A program made the position numbers and the translations under genes. This document shows, one piece after another, positions 1 to 26,007 of a stretch of DNA of 51,992 nt; the first letter of the stretch is position 1; the number at the start of each line of letters is the position of its first letter. The notes below the pieces were generated by a model, which worked only from the letters and a program-made list of their open reading frames with translations, searched no databases and was not told the origin of the DNA. This stretch comes from a virus (lineage: Duplodnaviria; Caudoviricetes). The DNA is taken from positions 1 through 51,992 of the IMG/VR virus record IMGVR_UViG_3300048586_000159; one strand, 5' to 3'.

Positions 1-646
1 GACGTTCGACCGCGCGCGGCGACAGGATGATGACGCCATGCGCGCCCTCGCCGCCGAGAACCTTCTGCCAGGAGAAGGTGACGACATCGAGCTTTGCGAA
101 ATCGAGGTTCTGCGCGAAGGCCGCCGAGGTCGCGTCGCAGATCGTGAGGCCCTTGCGGTCCGCCGGGATGAAATCGGCATTGGCGACGCGCACGCCAGAG
201 GTCGTGCCGTTCCAGGTGAAGACCACGTCACGGTCGAAATCGATCGTGGAAAGGTCGGGAAGAAGGCCGTAGTCGGCGGTGATCTTGCGGGTGTCGGGAA
301 GCTTCAGTTCCTTGACGACATCCGAAACCCAGCCCGAACCGAAGCTTTCCCAGGCTACCATGTCGACGCCGCGCGGGCCGAGCAGCGACCACAGCGCCAT
401 CTCGACGGCGCCGGTATCGGAGGCCGGCACGATGCCGATGCGGTAATCCGCAGGCACTTCCAAGACTTCACGGGTGAGATCGATGGCCTGCTTGAGCTTG
501 GTCTTGCCGATCTTGGCGCGGTGCGAACGACCGAGCGGAGCATCGGAAAGCGCTTCGAGCGACCAGTTGGGGCGCTTCGAGCAAGGGCCAGAAGAAAAAT
601 GGGTATTGTTCGGACGCACGTCCGGCGGTGTGACGGTCTTCGTCAT
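1..646 (-). CDS. serC: Phosphoserine aminotransferase (partial; 3' part lies beyond window start)
   Basis: Minus-strand frame from ATG at 646 reads [33 protein letters not shown]...[10 protein letters not shown]...[20 protein letters not shown], the alphaproteobacterial SerC N-terminus. SD-like GGAAGGA upstream. Absent from the ORF track because it has no stop in the window. Confidence 0.93.
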
Positions 647-702
647 GATCGCTATCCTTCCAGATAGATAGCTCCTCGTTGGGGAGGAGTGTCCCGCCGC
701 CG
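647..702 (-). ncRNA. serC leader cis-regulatory RNA motif (alphaproteobacterial)
   Basis: Immediately 5' of serC. Hairpins CTCCTC-cccaac-GAGGAG and GCTATC...GATAGC, the latter overlapping the SD. Position matches the described serC leader motif. Confidence 0.65.
674..702 (+). repeat. att core, left copy (CCTCGTTGGGGAGGAGTGTCCCGCCGCCG)
   Basis: Exact 29-bp match to 51252-51280. Confidence 0.95.
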
Positions 703-703
703 G

Positions 704-732
704 ATATATGGAAATGCTGGAAATCTGGCAAT
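704..732 (-). promoter_or_regulatory. Phage-derived sigma70-type promoter pointing into serC (ATTGCC-N17-ATATAT)
   Basis: Resembles the rhizobial CTTGAC-N17-CTATAT consensus. Same 1-nt offset from the att core as the candidate native promoter at 51282-51310. Confidence 0.6.
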
Positions 733-773
733 AGGGAAAATGAGATGGTCGCGAGATTATGCAGGTTCATGCA

Positions 774-788
774 GAACGATGCGGGAAC
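774..788. promoter_or_regulatory. Alphaproteobacterial LexA box GAAC-N7-GAAC
   Basis: GAACgatgcggGAAC. Confidence 0.55.
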
Positions 789-801
789 GCCTTCACTGAA
801 G

Positions 802-819
802 TGACACGCGATTGACACA
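802..819 (+). repeat. Putative integrase arm-type site (tandem TGACAC, 11-bp period)
   Basis: TGACACgcgatTGACACA about 100 bp inside the left core. The same motif and spacing occur at 50500-50517 and 51124-51141. Confidence 0.55.
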
Positions 820-824
820 GCAGC

Positions 825-839
825 GTTCTTGATGCGTTC
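825..839. promoter_or_regulatory. Alphaproteobacterial LexA box GTTC-N7-GTTC
   Basis: GTTCttgatgcGTTC, upstream of ORF 878-1180. Confidence 0.6.
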
Positions 840-877
840 GCCCTTGACTCTTCCCATCACTCTGCCACCCTCGCCCC

Positions 878-1180
878 ATGACAGAACCCTACCAGCCCCG
901 CTACCAATGGCGTCAGACACAGCTTGACGAGCACGACCCTCCGACCGATCTCGACTGGTGCGGCTTCGACGACGTGACCTATATCGGCAGGATCAGGAAA
1001 GAGACATCTGGCCCGACAAAGGGGAAGTGGCAGTGGGCGGCGGCGTATCCCCGCGATCTGCGTGACAAGAGGATACTGCCGAACACCGGCTTTGTGGACA
1101 CGGCGAGGATTGCCACGCAGATGGTGGAAGAATTCTGGGATAGGTGCTTGAAGAGAATTGAGGTTAACCGCGCCGACTGA
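878..1180 (+). CDS. Hypothetical protein (100 aa), probably SOS-regulated
   Basis: Trp-rich globular-looking ORF with two LexA boxes upstream. Confidence 0.7.
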   Translation: MTEPYQPRYQWRQTQLDEHDPPTDLDWCGFDDVTYIGRIRKETSGPTKGKWQWAAAYPRDLRDKRILPNTGFVDTARIATQMVEEFWDRCLKRIEVNRAD

Positions 1181-1487
1181 TCTCCCGCTGAATCCGCAGC
1201 TCCTCACGAATTTGACTCAGCTCGATCGCCATATGGCTTTCCGTCTTGGACATTTCCTCTCCCACTTCGACCAGGCTGATCATTACCGCAACGAGCTTCC
1301 CGACTTCATCGGAGAGGCGATTCAGCGCTGACGGATCGACAATGACGGCCGCGACCTGTGCTTTGTCAGAAGACGCTACAGTCTTCTGCCCCGCCCACAG
1401 GCCAAACCGCTGTACGGCGAAGATGACCGCAAGCGTCACGCCAAAGGTGATCAGCACGGTAGGCGGCAGGTCAGCCAGCTTTTCCAT
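1164..1487 (-). CDS. Lysis-cassette membrane protein (1 TM + coiled coil)
   Basis: N-terminal hydrophobic helix; overlaps the end of the holin-like gene. Confidence 0.7.
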   Translation of the reverse strand: MEKLADLPPTVLITFGVTLAVIFAVQRFGLWAGQKTVASSDKAQVAAVIVDPSALNRLSDEVGKLVAVMISLVEVGEEMSKTESHMAIELSQIREELRIQREISRRG

Positions 1488-1926
1488 GGATGCTCTCTCC
1501 CTGATCGCGAGCGGCGCGGTGGATATTGACTAGTTCGCCGACCGCAAACAGCGGATAGATGGCGAGCCAGGTGCTCACGAGATTGGAAGATGCGTATCCG
1601 TAGGTGATGCCAACCCAGATCATGCAGCCGATGCCGGCCGATATTTGCCGAATGTGCGGCGTGACGTCCTTGCGGGCGCCGTTGACCACGAGACCCGCTA
1701 ACCGAAGAAAGCCGAGCATGACCATAATCCAGCCAAGCACGTCCTCGTTCTGGAAAATCTGCCGAAAGCCCGACCAGGCAGGCTGATCGAAGATGCGATC
1801 CGGGATGAGCAGGACCCAACCCCACAAAGCGGTGTGCGCGGCCATGAACCATTCTGTCATTCTTGGGCCAAATCTATGTCTAATCTTGATCCATAAGCCA
1901 GCGCCGGAGTATTCTTCACCAGCCAT
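1471..1926 (-). CDS. Holin-like multi-pass membrane protein
   Basis: About 4 hydrophobic segments, located in the lysis cassette. Start taken as MAGEEYSG at 1926. Confidence 0.65.
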   Translation of the reverse strand: MAGEEYSGAGLWIKIRHRFGPRMTEWFMAAHTALWGWVLLIPDRIFDQPAWSGFRQIFQNEDVLGWIMVMLGFLRLAGLVVNGARKDVTPHIRQISAGIGCMIWVGITYGYASSNLVSTWLAIYPLFAVGELVNIHRAARDQGESIHGKAG

Positions 1927-1955
1927 TGTTTGCGCCCTTTTAAAGGAGAAATCGG

Positions 1956-2504
1956 TTGTCAGAGTTGTCATATTCTCTTGCTTTGCGCGTCCTTAAATAT
2001 GAGGCGGAAACCGGATGTCTTTATTGGCGAGAACGCCCAGCGGAGATGTTCTCGACGCCAGAAGCGGCGCATCTTTGGAATAGCCGTTATGCTGGTGAGA
2101 TGGCCTTCACCCATGTTGACAAGGACGGGTACAAGGTCGGCACGCTTTTCGGGAAATCCTACAAGGCTCATAGGCTGATCTGGCTCATGGAGACAGGAGC
2201 ATGGCCGAAATGGAGAATTGACCACCTAGACGGAAATCGCGCCAACAATCGCATTCCGAACCTTCGAGACGTCCGATGGGGCGTCAATTGCCGAAACCGA
2301 TCAATGGGAAGTAAGAACACAAGCGGTGTCGTCGGGGTACGTTGGGACCCGCAATCCAGCAAATGGCAAGCCTATATCAAGGTAGAACGGAAGCTTGTCC
2401 AATTGGGGAAGTTCACAGAAAAGAACGCTGCGATTGAAGCGCGACAAACTGCTGTTCGCCGCTTCGATTTTACAGAACGTCACGGCATGCCGTCCCGCGT
2501 CTAG
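1956..2504 (+). CDS. HNH endonuclease with C-terminal AP2-like domain
   Basis: AHRLIW...IDHLDGNRANNRIPNLR (HNH) and NTSGVVGV..WQAYI..LGKF (AP2). RBS AAAGGAGA. Opposite strand to the lysis genes. Confidence 0.88.
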   Translation: MSELSYSLALRVLKYEAETGCLYWRERPAEMFSTPEAAHLWNSRYAGEMAFTHVDKDGYKVGTLFGKSYKAHRLIWLMETGAWPKWRIDHLDGNRANNRIPNLRDVRWGVNCRNRSMGSKNTSGVVGVRWDPQSSKWQAYIKVERKLVQLGKFTEKNAAIEARQTAVRRFDFTERHGMPSRV

Positions 2505-2511
2505 CGTCATC

Positions 2512-2562
2512 ACGGTGCGTGATGCGTATCCAGAGGCCGGGTGCGCCTATTTGCTCCGTCAC
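2512..2562 (-). pseudogene. Remnant 5' end (17 codons) of the original holin-like gene
   Basis: Reads VTEQIGAPGLWIRITHR, matching MAGEEYSGAGLWIKIRHR of 1471-1926. Its GTG overlaps the o-spanin stop (GTGA). Confidence 0.7.
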
Positions 2563-2777
2563 TTCGCACACCCTGCCTGCGCCCGGCAGGTCCGATTGTG
2601 CGCTGCAACCCCATCGGCAAACGGCCGGTCGTTCGCGACAATGTATGCGCGCGTCCCCGGCGACGGCCGCAGCATCGCAAAGCCAGCCCCATCAGCGACA
2701 GGCGTTTTCGTCTGGCACCCAGAAGCCCCCAAGCTCAGAACACAAAGAAGCGTCGTCCATTTTGCGAATTTCAGCAT
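2559..2777 (-). CDS. o-spanin (Rz1-like lipoprotein)
   Basis: Lipobox LSLGASGC; overlaps the i-spanin out of frame. Confidence 0.75.
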   Translation of the reverse strand: MLKFAKWTTLLCVLSLGASGCQTKTPVADGAGFAMLRPSPGTRAYIVANDRPFADGVAAHNRTCRAQAGCAK

Positions 2778-2955
2778 CGGTTCCGGCCCTTTCCTGCATG
2801 GCCTCAATTGATCGGGCCATAATGGCCGCACGTTCAGCCGCGGCGCCCTCGTAGCGCGCTTGAGGTTGCCAGACGGCCATGGACATGAGAGAAGCGGCAG
2901 CGAAGCCCAGCGCGGCCCCTGCTGCCATTTTGACGGCGTCGAGGATCCCGATCAT
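2692..2955 (-). CDS. i-spanin (Rz-like)
   Basis: N-terminal TM, helical periplasmic domain and C-terminal Cys; follows the endolysin. Confidence 0.7.
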   Translation of the reverse strand: MIGILDAVKMAAGAALGFAAASLMSMAVWQPQARYEGAAAERAAIMARSIEAMQERAGTDAEIRKMDDASLCSELGGFWVPDENACR

Positions 2956-3608
2956 GATGGCGAAACCCGGCTCTTAATGAAGAGATAGGCGCCGACCGCG
3001 AAGGCAATCACGAGGATCACAGCCAGGGCGTATTGCAGCGGCCCGTCCCCGGTGAAGGCGAAGCCGAGCGACGAAACAATCCCCGCGCCCCAAGAGATGT
3101 TTTCCTTTGTGGCAATGGCCGGGGCGGTTGGCTTGGCCTCGACAAAGTTGGACGAGACGAAATCGCCCTTCGCCCAGAGGCCTGCCTCTGCCGATCGGCG
3201 GTTGACGAGACCCTGCACGCGCTTGCCGCCTGCGTTTACCCACTTCATCAGCTCGACCGGCACAGCATCGTATTGCCGAGCGTTCAGCTTCTTCAGCAGC
3301 GTGGACTTGTGAAGGGCCCCGGTGTTGAAGTCGAACGAGACGAGGGTGGCAAACTGGTTTTCGGTCAGCGGGACTTTCACAAGCCGGTCAACCCGCTCCT
3401 CGAAAACGCGGAGGTCAGCACGCAGAATTTGCTCTGCTTGATCCTCGCTAATAACCATCCCCTTGTAGACTTCAGGGGCTCCTGCTGCAGAAGTATGTCC
3501 GTATCCAATGGTCCACGGCTCACCTGCGAAGTTTCGATAAGCCTTTAGCTTCAGCCCTTCCCACTGCTTGATAAGCTGCAGCTCCGCCGCGTTAATGCGT
3601 CTGGTCAT
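2952..3608 (-). CDS. Endolysin, GH24 lysozyme, with C-terminal TM segments
   Basis: WEGLKLKAY...WTIGYGHT, QFATLVSFDFNTG and GLVNRRSAE motifs; hydrophobic C-terminus. Confidence 0.9.
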   Translation of the reverse strand: MTRRINAAELQLIKQWEGLKLKAYRNFAGEPWTIGYGHTSAAGAPEVYKGMVISEDQAEQILRADLRVFEERVDRLVKVPLTENQFATLVSFDFNTGALHKSTLLKKLNARQYDAVPVELMKWVNAGGKRVQGLVNRRSAEAGLWAKGDFVSSNFVEAKPTAPAIATKENISWGAGIVSSLGFAFTGDGPLQYALAVILVIAFAVGAYLFIKSRVSPS

Positions 3609-3656
3609 TGTCGTTCTCCATGTTCGGGTAATGTTGAAAAGGCAGAGCGATCAGCC

Positions 3657-4670
3657 CTACCCTCGATAGTCAGCACCAATGATGGTCAAGCCTGCGATCT
3701 CCGGCACGGCCTGCTGCAGCCAGGTGTTTCCGTTGGTGCTGTAGGCCAGCCGATCGTTGCCATAAAACGCCAGCGTCTTGTCAGCACCGGCAACCACGCG
3801 GCGGATATCCGCTCGCGCGCCGGATGCCCAATAATCGCTGCTATGCGCGCTCCAGCTTGTCAGTGTGGTCGAGCTAAGCCAGTCAGTAGCGCCGCCGGCA
3901 TACCATCGCCCCGAAACATGAAACACGAAGGTGAGGAACCCTGTCGTGCCGCTCGTGCGTGCCGTCCAGGTCGCGCCATCGGCGGAGCCAGAGACAATGC
4001 GACCATTGGAGCCGACCAGTACAAAGCCGGTCGAGATCGCCGCGACTGCATTGGCGGTGCTGCCGGAAAGCTGTCCGTTGCGCGCCGTAAACGCCGTTCG
4101 CGGATCAACGGAGGACACGACGGCATTGCCGACGACCACGATCGCCGTCGCATTTGCCGCAGCCCCATTCACAACTGTCAGCCCGGTCGCGGCGCCCAGC
4201 TCCCACGTTTCGCCATTGTCGTCGGAAACGATCGTCTCGCCGCTCTCCAGGAAGGCGACCAGGTCATTGCCGAACTCGACGATGGCTGCGAAGCCGCGAT
4301 TGTCAGCCGGCGCATCGAGAGGATGCGCATGCAGCTGGAAGTCCCATCCATCATCCGTCGAGACCAGGATCGCGCGAGAATTGGTGCCATCCGTATCGAA
4401 ATACTTCAGGGCGTAAAACGTCCGGCCGCTTTTCGTCTCGACATGGGCGCCGCCGAGGTTGCGGAAGAAGATGCCTTTCGAGGCAAGCTGCGGCAATGCC
4501 CCCCGCACCTCGCGCACGTCGTAATCGAGACCATTGGCGCTGGTGATGACGACGAGCTGCGACCGCGCATTTGGCACGCTGCCGATGGCGAGCGTCGCGA
4601 ATGCCACATAGGCTCCTGGTTGACGGTCGAGACCGTCACGGCCGAACTGGACAGTGGGAAAGATCGTCAT
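3657..4670 (-). CDS. Putative receptor-binding protein, beta-propeller/BNR-like repeats
   Basis: Repeated SxDxGxTW motifs (SDDNGETW, SADGATW, STNGNTW). Confidence 0.7.
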   Translation of the reverse strand: MTIFPTVQFGRDGLDRQPGAYVAFATLAIGSVPNARSQLVVITSANGLDYDVREVRGALPQLASKGIFFRNLGGAHVETKSGRTFYALKYFDTDGTNSRAILVSTDDGWDFQLHAHPLDAPADNRGFAAIVEFGNDLVAFLESGETIVSDDNGETWELGAATGLTVVNGAAANATAIVVVGNAVVSSVDPRTAFTARNGQLSGSTANAVAAISTGFVLVGSNGRIVSGSADGATWTARTSGTTGFLTFVFHVSGRWYAGGATDWLSSTTLTSWSAHSSDYWASGARADIRRVVAGADKTLAFYGNDRLAYSTNGNTWLQQAVPEIAGLTIIGADYRG

Positions 4671-24436: not shown

Positions 24437-24958
24437 TTATGCTGGGCGGAAGAACTGCCCGTGGTGCTTGACTGCGAAAGCATCTCTCGCACGGGCCGCC
24501 TCTTCGGCTGTGTCAAAAAGTCCGAGGTTCACTCGTCTTCCGCCCGCCCTTGCTCTGGCCAACCATTTCCCTGATCGGCGGTCGAAATTGACGCCCTTGA
24601 ACCCGCTGGTGTTGCTGCTCTTTAGGGGGAGGTTCGCGTTATTCTCGCGCGGTGTGGCTAAGCGAAGGTTCGCGAACCTGTTGTCCCGCTTGTTGAGATT
24701 GACGTGGTCGATCTGCTGTTTCGGCCATTTGCCTGTCATGTAAAACCATGCAAGCCGATGCGCATAATATCGATGCCCGTAAACGCTTACGCGCCAATAC
24801 CCATGGACGCCAAAGCCGCCTGCATCTGTACCGGCAACTCGCCTATGTGAATTTGTTATCAGCCACCGAAACTCGCCGCCAATTGGATCGTACTCAAGAG
24901 CTTCTTTCAGCTTCGATTGCGTAAGATCGCGCGGGGCGATAATCTCGCATTCAGCCAT
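24437..24958 (-). CDS. HNH endonuclease with AP2-like domain
   Basis: AHRLAWFY..IDHVNLNKRDNRFANLRLAT; NTSGFKGV..KWLAR..LGLFDTAEEAA. Confidence 0.9.
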   Translation of the reverse strand: MAECEIIAPRDLTQSKLKEALEYDPIGGEFRWLITNSHRRVAGTDAGGFGVHGYWRVSVYGHRYYAHRLAWFYMTGKWPKQQIDHVNLNKRDNRFANLRLATPRENNANLPLKSSNTSGFKGVNFDRRSGKWLARARAGGRRVNLGLFDTAEEAARARDAFAVKHHGQFFRPA

Positions 24959-25034
24959 CTCGACCTCCTTACAGGTGGGGCTTGGTAAGAATGGCCGGAT
25001 GTGTTGGTAGCACTCCGGCCATTCGTTATTTCTA
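24953..25034 (+). ncRNA. Putative SymR-like cis-antisense RNA, copy 4
   Basis: AGCCATCTCGACCTCCTTACAGGTGGGGCTTGGT, then hairpin GAATGGCCGGA..GTGTTGGTAGCAC..TCCGGCCATTC. TTGCGT-N17-TAATCT at 24917-24945. Confidence 0.62.
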
Positions 25035-25038
25035 CAGC

Positions 25039-26007
25039 TTATTTGGTGACATCGCCAATCGTAATCACCCCAGCCGAATGTTTAATAGAACTTGCTACGA
25101 GGTCCCAGTTGGCCCCCGTAGCAAGCTCCGCGTCGGTCGGCGACTTGCCACCGGAACCTTCATCCCATGTGAAGCCCTTGAGGCCGAGGCCGAAGGTGTA
25201 GTCCACCTGCAGGGTCGTCTCGATGCGGGTCTGACCGTTCTTCGTCTCTATGTTCGAGATGATGTCACGGCTGTCCGAGACGGTGGCGGCGTTCGCCACC
25301 AGCGACAGCACCTTGAGCTTGTTCGGCGTGCCGGCCTCGTACAGGGCGGGCGCGTCGGTGACGACGACCATCTTGCCGAGGATATCGACCACGCGAACGT
25401 TGGCGGCCTGGAACAGGGTCTGCGCATTGGCGAGGTTCAGGCCGATCAGCTTGTGATAGGCCGTACCATTCATCACCTGCGTGATGAGATTGCCGGAATG
25501 GTCGCCGAACTTGGCGTGGGCATCGTTCATGGTGATGTAGCTGACGCCGGCCGTGGCCGACACGTCATTCGTGGCCGCGGCCTGATTGCTGATCGCGGCC
25601 ACCAGCGCGGCAATGGCGCTGTTGAGCTGATCGCGAAGCAGCGCCTCGGCGAAATTGCGGGAGGCAACCTCGACGCCCTCGGCCGTCGGCTTGTCCAGCC
25701 AGGTCATCTGCGAAGGCTCATAGCGCACCGGGCCGAAGCCGCCCGCGACCTTGACCGAGGAGTGCTTGAGCTGCGTCAGGTCGGTTGCCGAAGCGCTGGC
25801 CTGAGCAGCATAGCGGTCAACGCGACGCTGAGCCGAGTGGATGGCGGCGTAGAACGATTCCTGGAGGAAGTCGCCTTCGAAACCTTCCGTGGTCAGGCGG
25901 ATCGCGCCGCCGGATGCCGCGTTGAACTTGTCGACCATCTGCGCAAGCGTCTCGATGGTGGCGGGCATGAAGTACTTGTTGAAGACCTGCATCTGCGAAA
26001 GAGACAT
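25039..26007 (-). CDS. Major capsid protein
   Basis: 322 aa after the scaffold gene; FNAASGGAIRL and GLGLKGFTWD...KSPTDAELATGANW motifs. Confidence 0.88.
   Translation of the reverse strand: MSLSQMQVFNKYFMPATIETLAQMVDKFNAASGGAIRLTTEGFEGDFLQESFYAAIHSAQRRVDRYAAQASASATDLTQLKHSSVKVAGGFGPVRYEPSQMTWLDKPTAEGVEVASRNFAEALLRDQLNSAIAALVAAISNQAAATNDVSATAGVSYITMNDAHAKFGDHSGNLITQVMNGTAYHKLIGLNLANAQTLFQAANVRVVDILGKMVVVTDAPALYEAGTPNKLKVLSLVANAATVSDSRDIISNIETKNGQTRIETTLQVDYTFGLGLKGFTWDEGSGGKSPTDAELATGANWDLVASSIKHSAGVITIGDVTK

Follow-up and report, generated by a model that had tools for sequence, protein, structure and literature searches.

Within the 51,992 bp virus record IMGVR_UViG_3300048586_000159, the whole of which was analysed and is called the window here, the lysis cluster of a Shinella-type prophage carries an HNH-AP2 endonuclease gene inside the 5′ part of a small membrane-protein gene. 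We propose, with a probability of about 0.85, that this is an endonuclease cassette equipped with a spare start for the gene it interrupts: the spare start keeps the gene whole, and the old start was left behind as a stub. This reading builds on direct observations, namely the anatomy of the locus, the foreign composition of the block, its junction, its absence in relatives, the presence of an uninterrupted allele elsewhere and the mixture of two allele lineages in stub and gene body. The genes of this prophage end lie on the minus strand, and the interrupted locus comprises the following parts, in window coordinates:

1471-1926, minus strand: membrane protein P0001, 151 aa, phrog_8980, function unknown
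1471-1872, minus strand: native gene body, codons 19-151 and stop, 97% identical to the HNH-free protein P0002
1873-2511: inserted block, 639 bp, consisting of 7 bp, the HNH-AP2 gene, a 29-bp spacer and the substitute 5′ end
1873-1926, minus strand: substitute 5′ end, ATG and 17 codons, MAGEEYSGAGLWIKIRHR
1927-1955: divergent start region, 29 bp, CCCTTTTAAAGGAG
1956-2504, plus strand: HNH-AP2 gene, 182 aa, TTG start, with AAGGAG at 1943-1948, 7 nt upstream
2470-2511, minus strand: tail of the stub frame, DDARRGTACRDVL, stop at 2472-2470, antisense into the cassette and the 3′ end of the HNH gene
2512-2562, minus strand: stub, the old native 5′ end, GTG and 16 codons, VTEQIGAPGLWIRITHR

On the minus strand, the putative o-spanin gene upstream ends in ...AQAGCAK-TGA (2561-2559), and its stop codon is overlapped by the GTG of the stub (2562-2560) as GTGA. 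Counted from GTG 2562, the stub open reading frame (ORF) totals 30 aa; beyond the junction, its tail matches the family consensus at 6/24 nt and DDARRGTACRDVL has no likeness to the family. The stop codon of the HNH gene (2502-2504, plus strand) lies 7 nt from the stub end. On the other side, 29 bases left of the HNH start and on the opposite strand, ATG 1926 opens MAGEEYSGAGLWIKIRHRFGPRMTEWF, and the intact gene begins there as MAGEEYSGAGLWIKIRHRFGPRM. The block sits between codons 17 and 18 of the interrupted gene, equivalent to codon 18|19 of the rebuilt gene, and splits the motif W-I-R-I-Q-H-R|F-G-P-R exactly between the invariant Arg and Phe codons. Since the cassette brings an 18-codon copy with its own ATG, the host gene is rebuilt as new start plus native body. 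On either side of the endonuclease ORF lies a copy of one and the same gene end; the two have diverged, and one is in use while the other is a remnant. The spacer CCCTTTTAAAGGAG offers AAGGAG to the HNH gene on the plus strand and, 8 nt ahead of ATG 1926 in minus-strand orientation, AAAAGGG to the rebuilt gene, and these purine-rich stretches within 1927-1955 presumably act as ribosome binding sites. A 7-bp inverted repeat (CATCACG, a 3-nt loop and CGTGATG) spans the cassette|stub junction after the HNH stop at 2508-2524; it could be due to chance, a trace of microhomology or a small hairpin.

Both copies of the gene start are recognizable by comparison with homologues. In all six frames of the window, there are exactly two matches to the motif G[LIVM]W[IV]x[IVM]x[HERS]R, one in the stub and one in the new start. 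When the first 24 residues of homologue P0024 were compared with the window, the stub was matched with E 4.7e-8 and the new start with 1.7e-7, the next best match having E 0.19; the repeat is far beyond chance. With its GTG counted as Met, the stub agrees with the N-terminus of P0024 in 16/17 residues and with that of P0017, a Shinella oryzae protein according to its source, in 15/17. The stub is closer to the relatives than the copy in use, both when matched by eye to the 5′ end of the HNH-free allele (24/30 nt versus 15/30 nt) and when matched to the family consensus (24/33 nt versus 21/33 nt). Moreover, the copy in use has a foreign composition: GC content at third codon positions (GC3) drops to 0.44 in the 18 new codons, compared with 0.71 for the stub, 0.73 for the gene body and 0.57 for the HNH gene (overall GC of the window, 0.595), and the block as a whole is a low-GC island. 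At the DNA level, about half of the positions are shared between the two copies (18/36 nt over the last 12 codons, by eye). The new start keeps the family motif and has the modal length of ten residues before the hydrophobic residue that precedes the W (55/113), and its variant LWIKIRHRF is unique among the homologues (1/113). From these comparisons, it appears to be a family N-terminus of normal length but unusual sequence.

Two database entries bear on this gene. A public protein catalogue carries the window protein only from residue 23, which is read as Met (window 1860-1926); automated gene calling therefore missed the substitute start. The 136-aa protein P0047, encoded on a 517-nt contig, is 100% identical to the window protein from DRIFDQPAW onward and has 27 unrelated residues ahead of this point, and could reflect another junction in the membrane-protein gene or a mis-called frame.

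A survey of relatives revealed an empty site. No HNH gene was found in 48 loci that bear a homologue of the membrane-protein gene (about 45 distinct places). In 26 HNH-free loci, the motif was present as one copy in 23, was absent by that pattern in three and was never present twice; the loci missed by the first pattern, L004/L045 (one place) and L044, have a single copy under another pattern. The gene start overlaps the upstream stop or lies within 4 nt of it in 10/10 relatives examined (ATGA, TGATG, TAATG, TTGA), and the upstream gene is the o-spanin wherever it is recognisable. The closest HNH-free DNA compared, that of L047, is ~82% identical. In L074 (1398-1833), the membrane-protein homologue appears as two overlapping matches in different frames, probably owing to a frameshift or sequencing error.

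The exact junction was provided by four public sequencing runs with near-identical DNA (X1-X4), which were compared with window 700-3700. Contigs from all four runs cover the native body (1471-1872) nearly identically. HNH-free contigs in X1-X3, representing three studies, match the window up to 1872 and diverge at 1872|1873: record 5 of X1 covers 1663-1872 with 2 other letters, record 9 of X2 covers 700-1872 with 29, and record 17 of X3 spans 1821-1872. In the loose end past 1872, the first 30 letters (minus strand) encode PGLWIRIQHR, joined straight to Phe19; these contigs are the uninterrupted allele. Because homology breaks at codon 18|19, which corresponds to the stub end HR|, the block comprises 1873-2511, and its right edge is the point where the stub stops matching the family. 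The block is thus sporadic, with the site empty in close relatives, both in the 48 loci and in the uninterrupted allele of X1-X3. The HNH gene itself is represented by contigs in each run (X1, 2117-2474; X2, 2211-2533; X3, 1870-2120 and 2187-2437; X4, 2152-2535). We rejected the idea that the AT-rich codons at 1872-1846 are a co-conversion tract: TTT GGC CCA AGA ATG ACA GAA (1872-1852) is also present in HNH-free alleles and therefore native, and the AGA at the shared arginine is used by 5/23 relatives.

These results bear on the original prediction, which had been made from the letters of the stretch. The stub at 2562-2512 with its GTG over the o-spanin stop is present as it described, and its proposal that the intact gene restarts at 1926 after being split by the HNH-AP2 gene is supported by the 16/17 match of the stub and by the junction contigs. 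The AT-rich codons that it noted at the new start are likewise reflected in GC3 (0.44 versus 0.71 and 0.73), but the left edge of the block is 1873 rather than 1855, as the AT-rich codons from TTT 1872 on, which its range had included, are native and common to HNH-free alleles. Neither outcome that would have refuted it was seen: HNH-free relatives do not carry both copies (0/26 loci with two), and the remnant aligns to their gene start (16 of the 17 residues in P0024). As it had expected, the upstream stop in these relatives runs into an uninterrupted gene, overlapping or abutting its start in 10/10.

The HNH gene is intact and full length in comparison with phage homologues. Its product matches Pfam HNH_3 with 51.1 bits (cutoff 24.8) and phrog_99 over residues 3-177 (E 7.6e-55). 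The best solved relative is I-HmuI (PDB 1U3E; E 1.4e-5, residues 47-123), to which the elements HRL...DHxDGNxxNN...NLR can be aligned, including the catalytic motif AHRL...IDHLDGNRANNRIPNLR; I-HmuI is a nicking HNH enzyme. We regard the window gene as a putative free-standing HNH-AP2 homing endonuclease. The insertion site would suit such an enzyme: it falls in the part of the protein that is conserved best, W, R, F, G and R at this site are invariant in 118/118 homologues, its DNA is the best conserved of the region, and homing endonucleases typically target such highly conserved sites. Related HNH genes are sporadic, occurring in 24/401 Rhizobiaceae genomes with at most 47% identity. One contig of genome G392 has two HNH-AP2 matches with the same scores ~46 kb apart (L077 and L099), which hints at either recent copying or a prophage region that is repeated. 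The window contains a second HNH-AP2 gene (24437-24958, minus strand), 40% identical to the first over residues 57-165. It directly follows a major-capsid-like gene (25039-26007, minus strand) with AT-rich last codons (GC 0.45 at 25000-25099), and no remnant of a capsid-gene end was found near it.

The two sides of the cassette point to different allele lineages. Over the whole protein, P0001 is 97% identical to P0002, whose N-terminus is MTGSPGLWIRVQHR, and 76% identical to P0024, the protein that the stub resembles most. Furthermore, at a likeness of at least 90%, no contig of the four runs covers ~2540-3120, and the HNH-free contigs have a spanin module that does not resemble the one in the window. 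By these comparisons, the locus joins the spanins and gene start of one lineage to the gene body of another, with the cassette at the joint. Since stub and body belong to different lineages, the HNH gene sits on a recombination boundary. Such a mosaic could have arisen if, in a homing event, a P0002-type genome bearing the cassette had been the donor and a P0024-type genome the recipient, with long co-conversion confined to the downstream side; alternatively, ordinary recombination at the cassette spot might have produced it. Phage nuclease genes at exchange boundaries are a published pattern (available part of PMC10448857), and both routes fit it.

We propose the following course of events. 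The enzyme would nick or cut uninterrupted alleles at or near HR|F, and the break would be repaired from a cassette-bearing genome, with flanking DNA converted along. The present combination of P0024-like stub and P0002-like body might stem from such a conversion or from ordinary recombination. The divergence of the spare start at the DNA level may prevent re-cutting of the rebuilt gene. Translation of the rebuilt gene would begin at ATG 1926 via AAAAGGG 8 nt upstream, independently of the spanin, and its transcript would have to read through the antisense HNH gene. Ribosomes leaving the o-spanin gene may still translate the 30-residue stub.

Several observations weigh against this interpretation. 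In the four runs, no contig bridges either cassette junction with at least 31 letters on each side, so that the HNH-bearing arrangement rests on the assembly of the window itself and on HNH-gene contigs that end at the junctions or close to them. The present allele cannot have arisen by simple insertion, as the stub is P0024-like and the body P0002-like, and this difference in lineage demands at least one further exchange. A donor for the HNH gene was not found among viral contigs (identity up to 37%), phage records (up to 47%) or the 401 Rhizobiaceae genomes (up to 47%); none of the HNH relatives in the 24 positive genomes adjoins the membrane-protein family, and the two closest phage HNH genes are surrounded by hypothetical genes. 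A source of the 18 new codons was not found either, and the variant WIKIRHRF had no other match. The AP2 match of the HNH product (24.1 bits, E 4.6e-5) is below the Pfam cutoff of 33.3. With regard to protection from re-cutting, the 21/33 match of the spare start to the consensus ties with the lowest natural relative and lends the idea weak support. Finally, the purine-rich stretch before ATG 1926 is weak, and a promoter and terminator scan of 1100-3700 gave nothing above shuffled expectation.

A second case was identified among 28 related HNH-AP2 loci. These were subjected to a crude flank-versus-flank screen, in which the window, as the control, gave E 1.9e-4; low-complexity frames in other loci gave similar E values, L075 alone was confirmed by reading, and the count is a lower bound. 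In L075 (920-2136, minus strand), the upstream stop overlaps an ATG (TGATG) that opens MTRILTFESKTSN. This is a 13-codon stub of a RuvC-like gene, to which the HNH-AP2 gene, 39% identical to that of the window, is fused in frame without a start of its own. The HNH stop in turn overlaps (ATGA) a second copy, MTRILSFDQSTKN, which continues as the RuvC-like gene. The two 13-codon copies are identical in 24/39 nt (by eye), and in 6/6 HNH-free relatives of the RuvC-like gene, the start lies at the upstream stop or no more than 3 nt from it. On sequence grounds, the design recurs in another gene and another genome, with the L075 endonuclease apparently using the old start of the host gene.

A different history for the window, unlikely in our view but deserving serious consideration, is that the donor had an HNH gene upstream of a free-starting membrane-protein gene and that HNH gene, start and whole body moved together by one recombination. 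The upstream crossover would then have been illegitimate and have fallen by chance after codon 17 of the recipient, and the stretch that moved might reach down to the prophage end. The mosaic suits this scenario: the stub is P0024-like and the body P0002-like (76% versus 97%), the window spanin module differs from that of HNH-free contigs with nothing at 90% or more over ~2540-3120, and nuclease genes at exchange boundaries have been described (part of PMC10448857). However, HNH-free alleles with the same body break exactly at the codon where the stub ends, and a break at one homologous position on both sides is what is expected of a discrete insert at a fixed site. In addition, L075 has the same design in another gene. 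The scenario also overlaps with homing accompanied by long one-sided co-conversion rather than opposing it.

The other alternatives fare worse. Retention of the 30-aa stub ORF, either because it encodes a small protein or because it serves the spanin operon as a translational landing pad, would agree with its start in the coupled position and its frame open for 30 codons, but is improbable given a tail without family likeness that overlaps the 3′ end of the HNH gene in antisense, and there are no relatives in which its conservation could be assessed. It is still less probable that the two-start arrangement is ancestral and that the uninterrupted alleles arose later by deletion of the HNH block. 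Although two copies could in principle recombine, nothing positive points to this; the block is present in 0/48 homologue loci and has a foreign composition, uninterrupted alleles keep a start that overlaps the upstream stop as the stub does, and copies that are only about half identical (18/36 nt) would hardly allow a precise deletion. A stub due to mere chance similarity or to faulty assembly, to which the absence of contigs bridging the junctions under the 31-letter rule might be taken to point, is hardly credible in view of the E value of 4.7e-8 against a next best of 0.19 in the window, the ancestral GTGA position of the stub, the high-identity contigs over the HNH gene in four runs, which extend to 2533-2535 and 1870, and two copies too unlike to mislead an assembler. 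We retain the cassette with a spare start as the most plausible account.

The interrupted gene belongs to a lysis cluster whose other members are as follows:

2952-3608, minus strand: endolysin with a lysozyme domain (Pfam Phage_lysozyme, E 2.6e-43)
2692-2955, minus strand: putative i-spanin (phrog_12535, E 5e-10; weak match to the Rz-like spanin phrog_1026, E 0.0083)
2559-2831, minus strand: putative o-spanin with a lipobox-like LGASGC after an internal ATG, stop TGA at 2561-2559
1164-1487, minus strand: 107-aa gene with an N-terminal hydrophobic segment, overlapping the end of the membrane-protein gene

The C-terminal tail of the endolysin is hydrophobic; in NCBIfam, the protein is matched best by BgtA, the endolysin of the Bartonella gene transfer agent (BaGTA), with 261.5 bits under a cutoff of 315. 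Because the putative o-spanin ORF has no match among Pfam, PHROG and NCBIfam families, its name is based on position and on a lipoprotein-like signal; its homologues sit upstream of the membrane-protein gene in relatives. The 107-aa gene is a conserved partner of the membrane-protein gene: the pair was read in L004, L006 and L007 and is annotated in phage Nsp-JY10. Between the last gene of the cluster and the prophage edge lies a plus-strand gene at 878-1180 (phrog_12188). The first ~711 bases of the window are host DNA with a phosphoserine-aminotransferase-like gene, 98% identical to a Shinella-type genome. The likeness of window 1-712 to three genomes of the Shinella-type genus ends at ~711-713, which places the prophage edge ~450 bp past the last lysis-cluster gene.

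The membrane-protein family comprises 284 proteins at E 1e-5 or better, from rhizobiaceal and other alphaproteobacterial prophages and phages, and was found in 26/401 Rhizobiaceae genomes. Four stretches of P0001 are hydrophobic, two strongly (residues 61-85 and 115-135) and two more weakly. Its gene follows the endolysin and spanins in the window and thus encodes a small membrane protein of the lysis cluster; in phages Nsp-JY10 and Kharn, the homologue comes after a lysozyme gene, and in phage R16L a GH19 endolysin gene is three genes away from it. The protein has no Pfam or NCBIfam family, it was not placed in a holin family, the function of phrog_8980 is unknown, and the Atlas lists unnamed viral clusters only. 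A holin would accordingly be a fair guess rather than an established identity, and the label holin-like in the original prediction holds as far as a membrane protein in a lysis cluster is concerned, without family support. The same prediction had proposed that coupling to the spanin was lost. The loss of the start/stop overlap is legible in the DNA, but a resulting change in lysis timing would be pure inference.

It is possible, with odds that we would put somewhat below even, that phage HNH-AP2 endonucleases form a class of end-replacing cassettes that carry diverged spare first codons of their target gene. If so, such cassettes can settle in the most conserved part of a coding region without an intron or intein, and they would exist in two forms, one that borrows the start of the host gene, as in L075, and one with a divergent two-way start region, as in the window. 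Besides restoring the gene, the spare copy would protect it against re-cutting, and with each homing event neighbouring alleles would be carried along, leaving mosaic boundaries in lysis and recombination modules. The cassette of the window itself would add a third mode to introns or inteins and to gene splitting: by bringing a spare gene end, a homing endonuclease can reside within a phage gene without destroying it. For genome annotation, short stubs and odd low-GC gene starts beside HNH genes are easily mis-called. For phage evolution, the endonuclease marks the joint of two allele lineages of a lysis cluster. Moreover, a gene that overlaps the spanin stop in relatives is here uncoupled, 636 nt downstream and behind an antisense gene, and may serve as a natural experiment on the dosage and timing of lysis genes. 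Since alleles with and without the cassette co-occur in public wastewater runs, they offer a direct handle for homing assays.

In the literature searched, we found no case of a phage endonuclease cassette with a duplicated gene end, which does not prove that none is in print. Among known nucleases, I-HmuI of Bacillus phage SPO1 shares the aligned catalytic motif with the HNH protein of the window; unlike the latter, it is intron-encoded and lacks an AP2-like C-terminal part. The HNH-AP2 phage endonucleases of Barth et al. (2023) resemble the window gene in pairing an N-terminal HNH domain with a C-terminal AP2 domain, for which the window protein has a match below the Pfam cutoff, in their sporadic occurrence and in their location at a mosaic boundary, whereas no duplicated host-gene end or substitute start is described in the available part of that paper (PMC10448857). 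Free-standing phage endonucleases are also known to split genes, as in mobE and nrdA of Aeh1, mobA and T4 gene 60/39, and seg and gene 43 of phage 25 (available part of PMC2988022). As in our case, an endonuclease free of intron and intein lies inside a conserved coding region, and the target gene is functional in those examples. There, however, two polypeptides reassemble and no duplication is mentioned in the accessible text of PMC2988022, whereas in the window one piece was discarded and a spare copy is present.

The closest known analogue is provided by the mobile ORFs (mORFs) of fungal mitochondria, found in atp6 of Allomyces macrogynus and in atp6, atp9, cox2 and nad3 of Glomus (Paquin et al. 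1994, as cited in PMC3630166; this and the following points are from the part of PMC3630166 available). In mORFs, too, the endonuclease ORF displaces a gene end and brings along a foreign copy of it, and the hybrid gene is functional. The native end likewise stays beside the element as a remnant that is closer to the relatives than the inserted copy. In contrast to the window, mORFs replace the 3′ ends of organelle genes, their enzymes are of the LAGLIDADG or GIY-YIG type, and most of the elements share the phase of the host gene. In the prophage studied here, it is the 5′ end together with the start codon that is replaced, and the HNH-AP2 gene lies on the opposite strand. L075 differs from both the mORFs and the window, as its enzyme is encoded on the same strand and fused to the stub.

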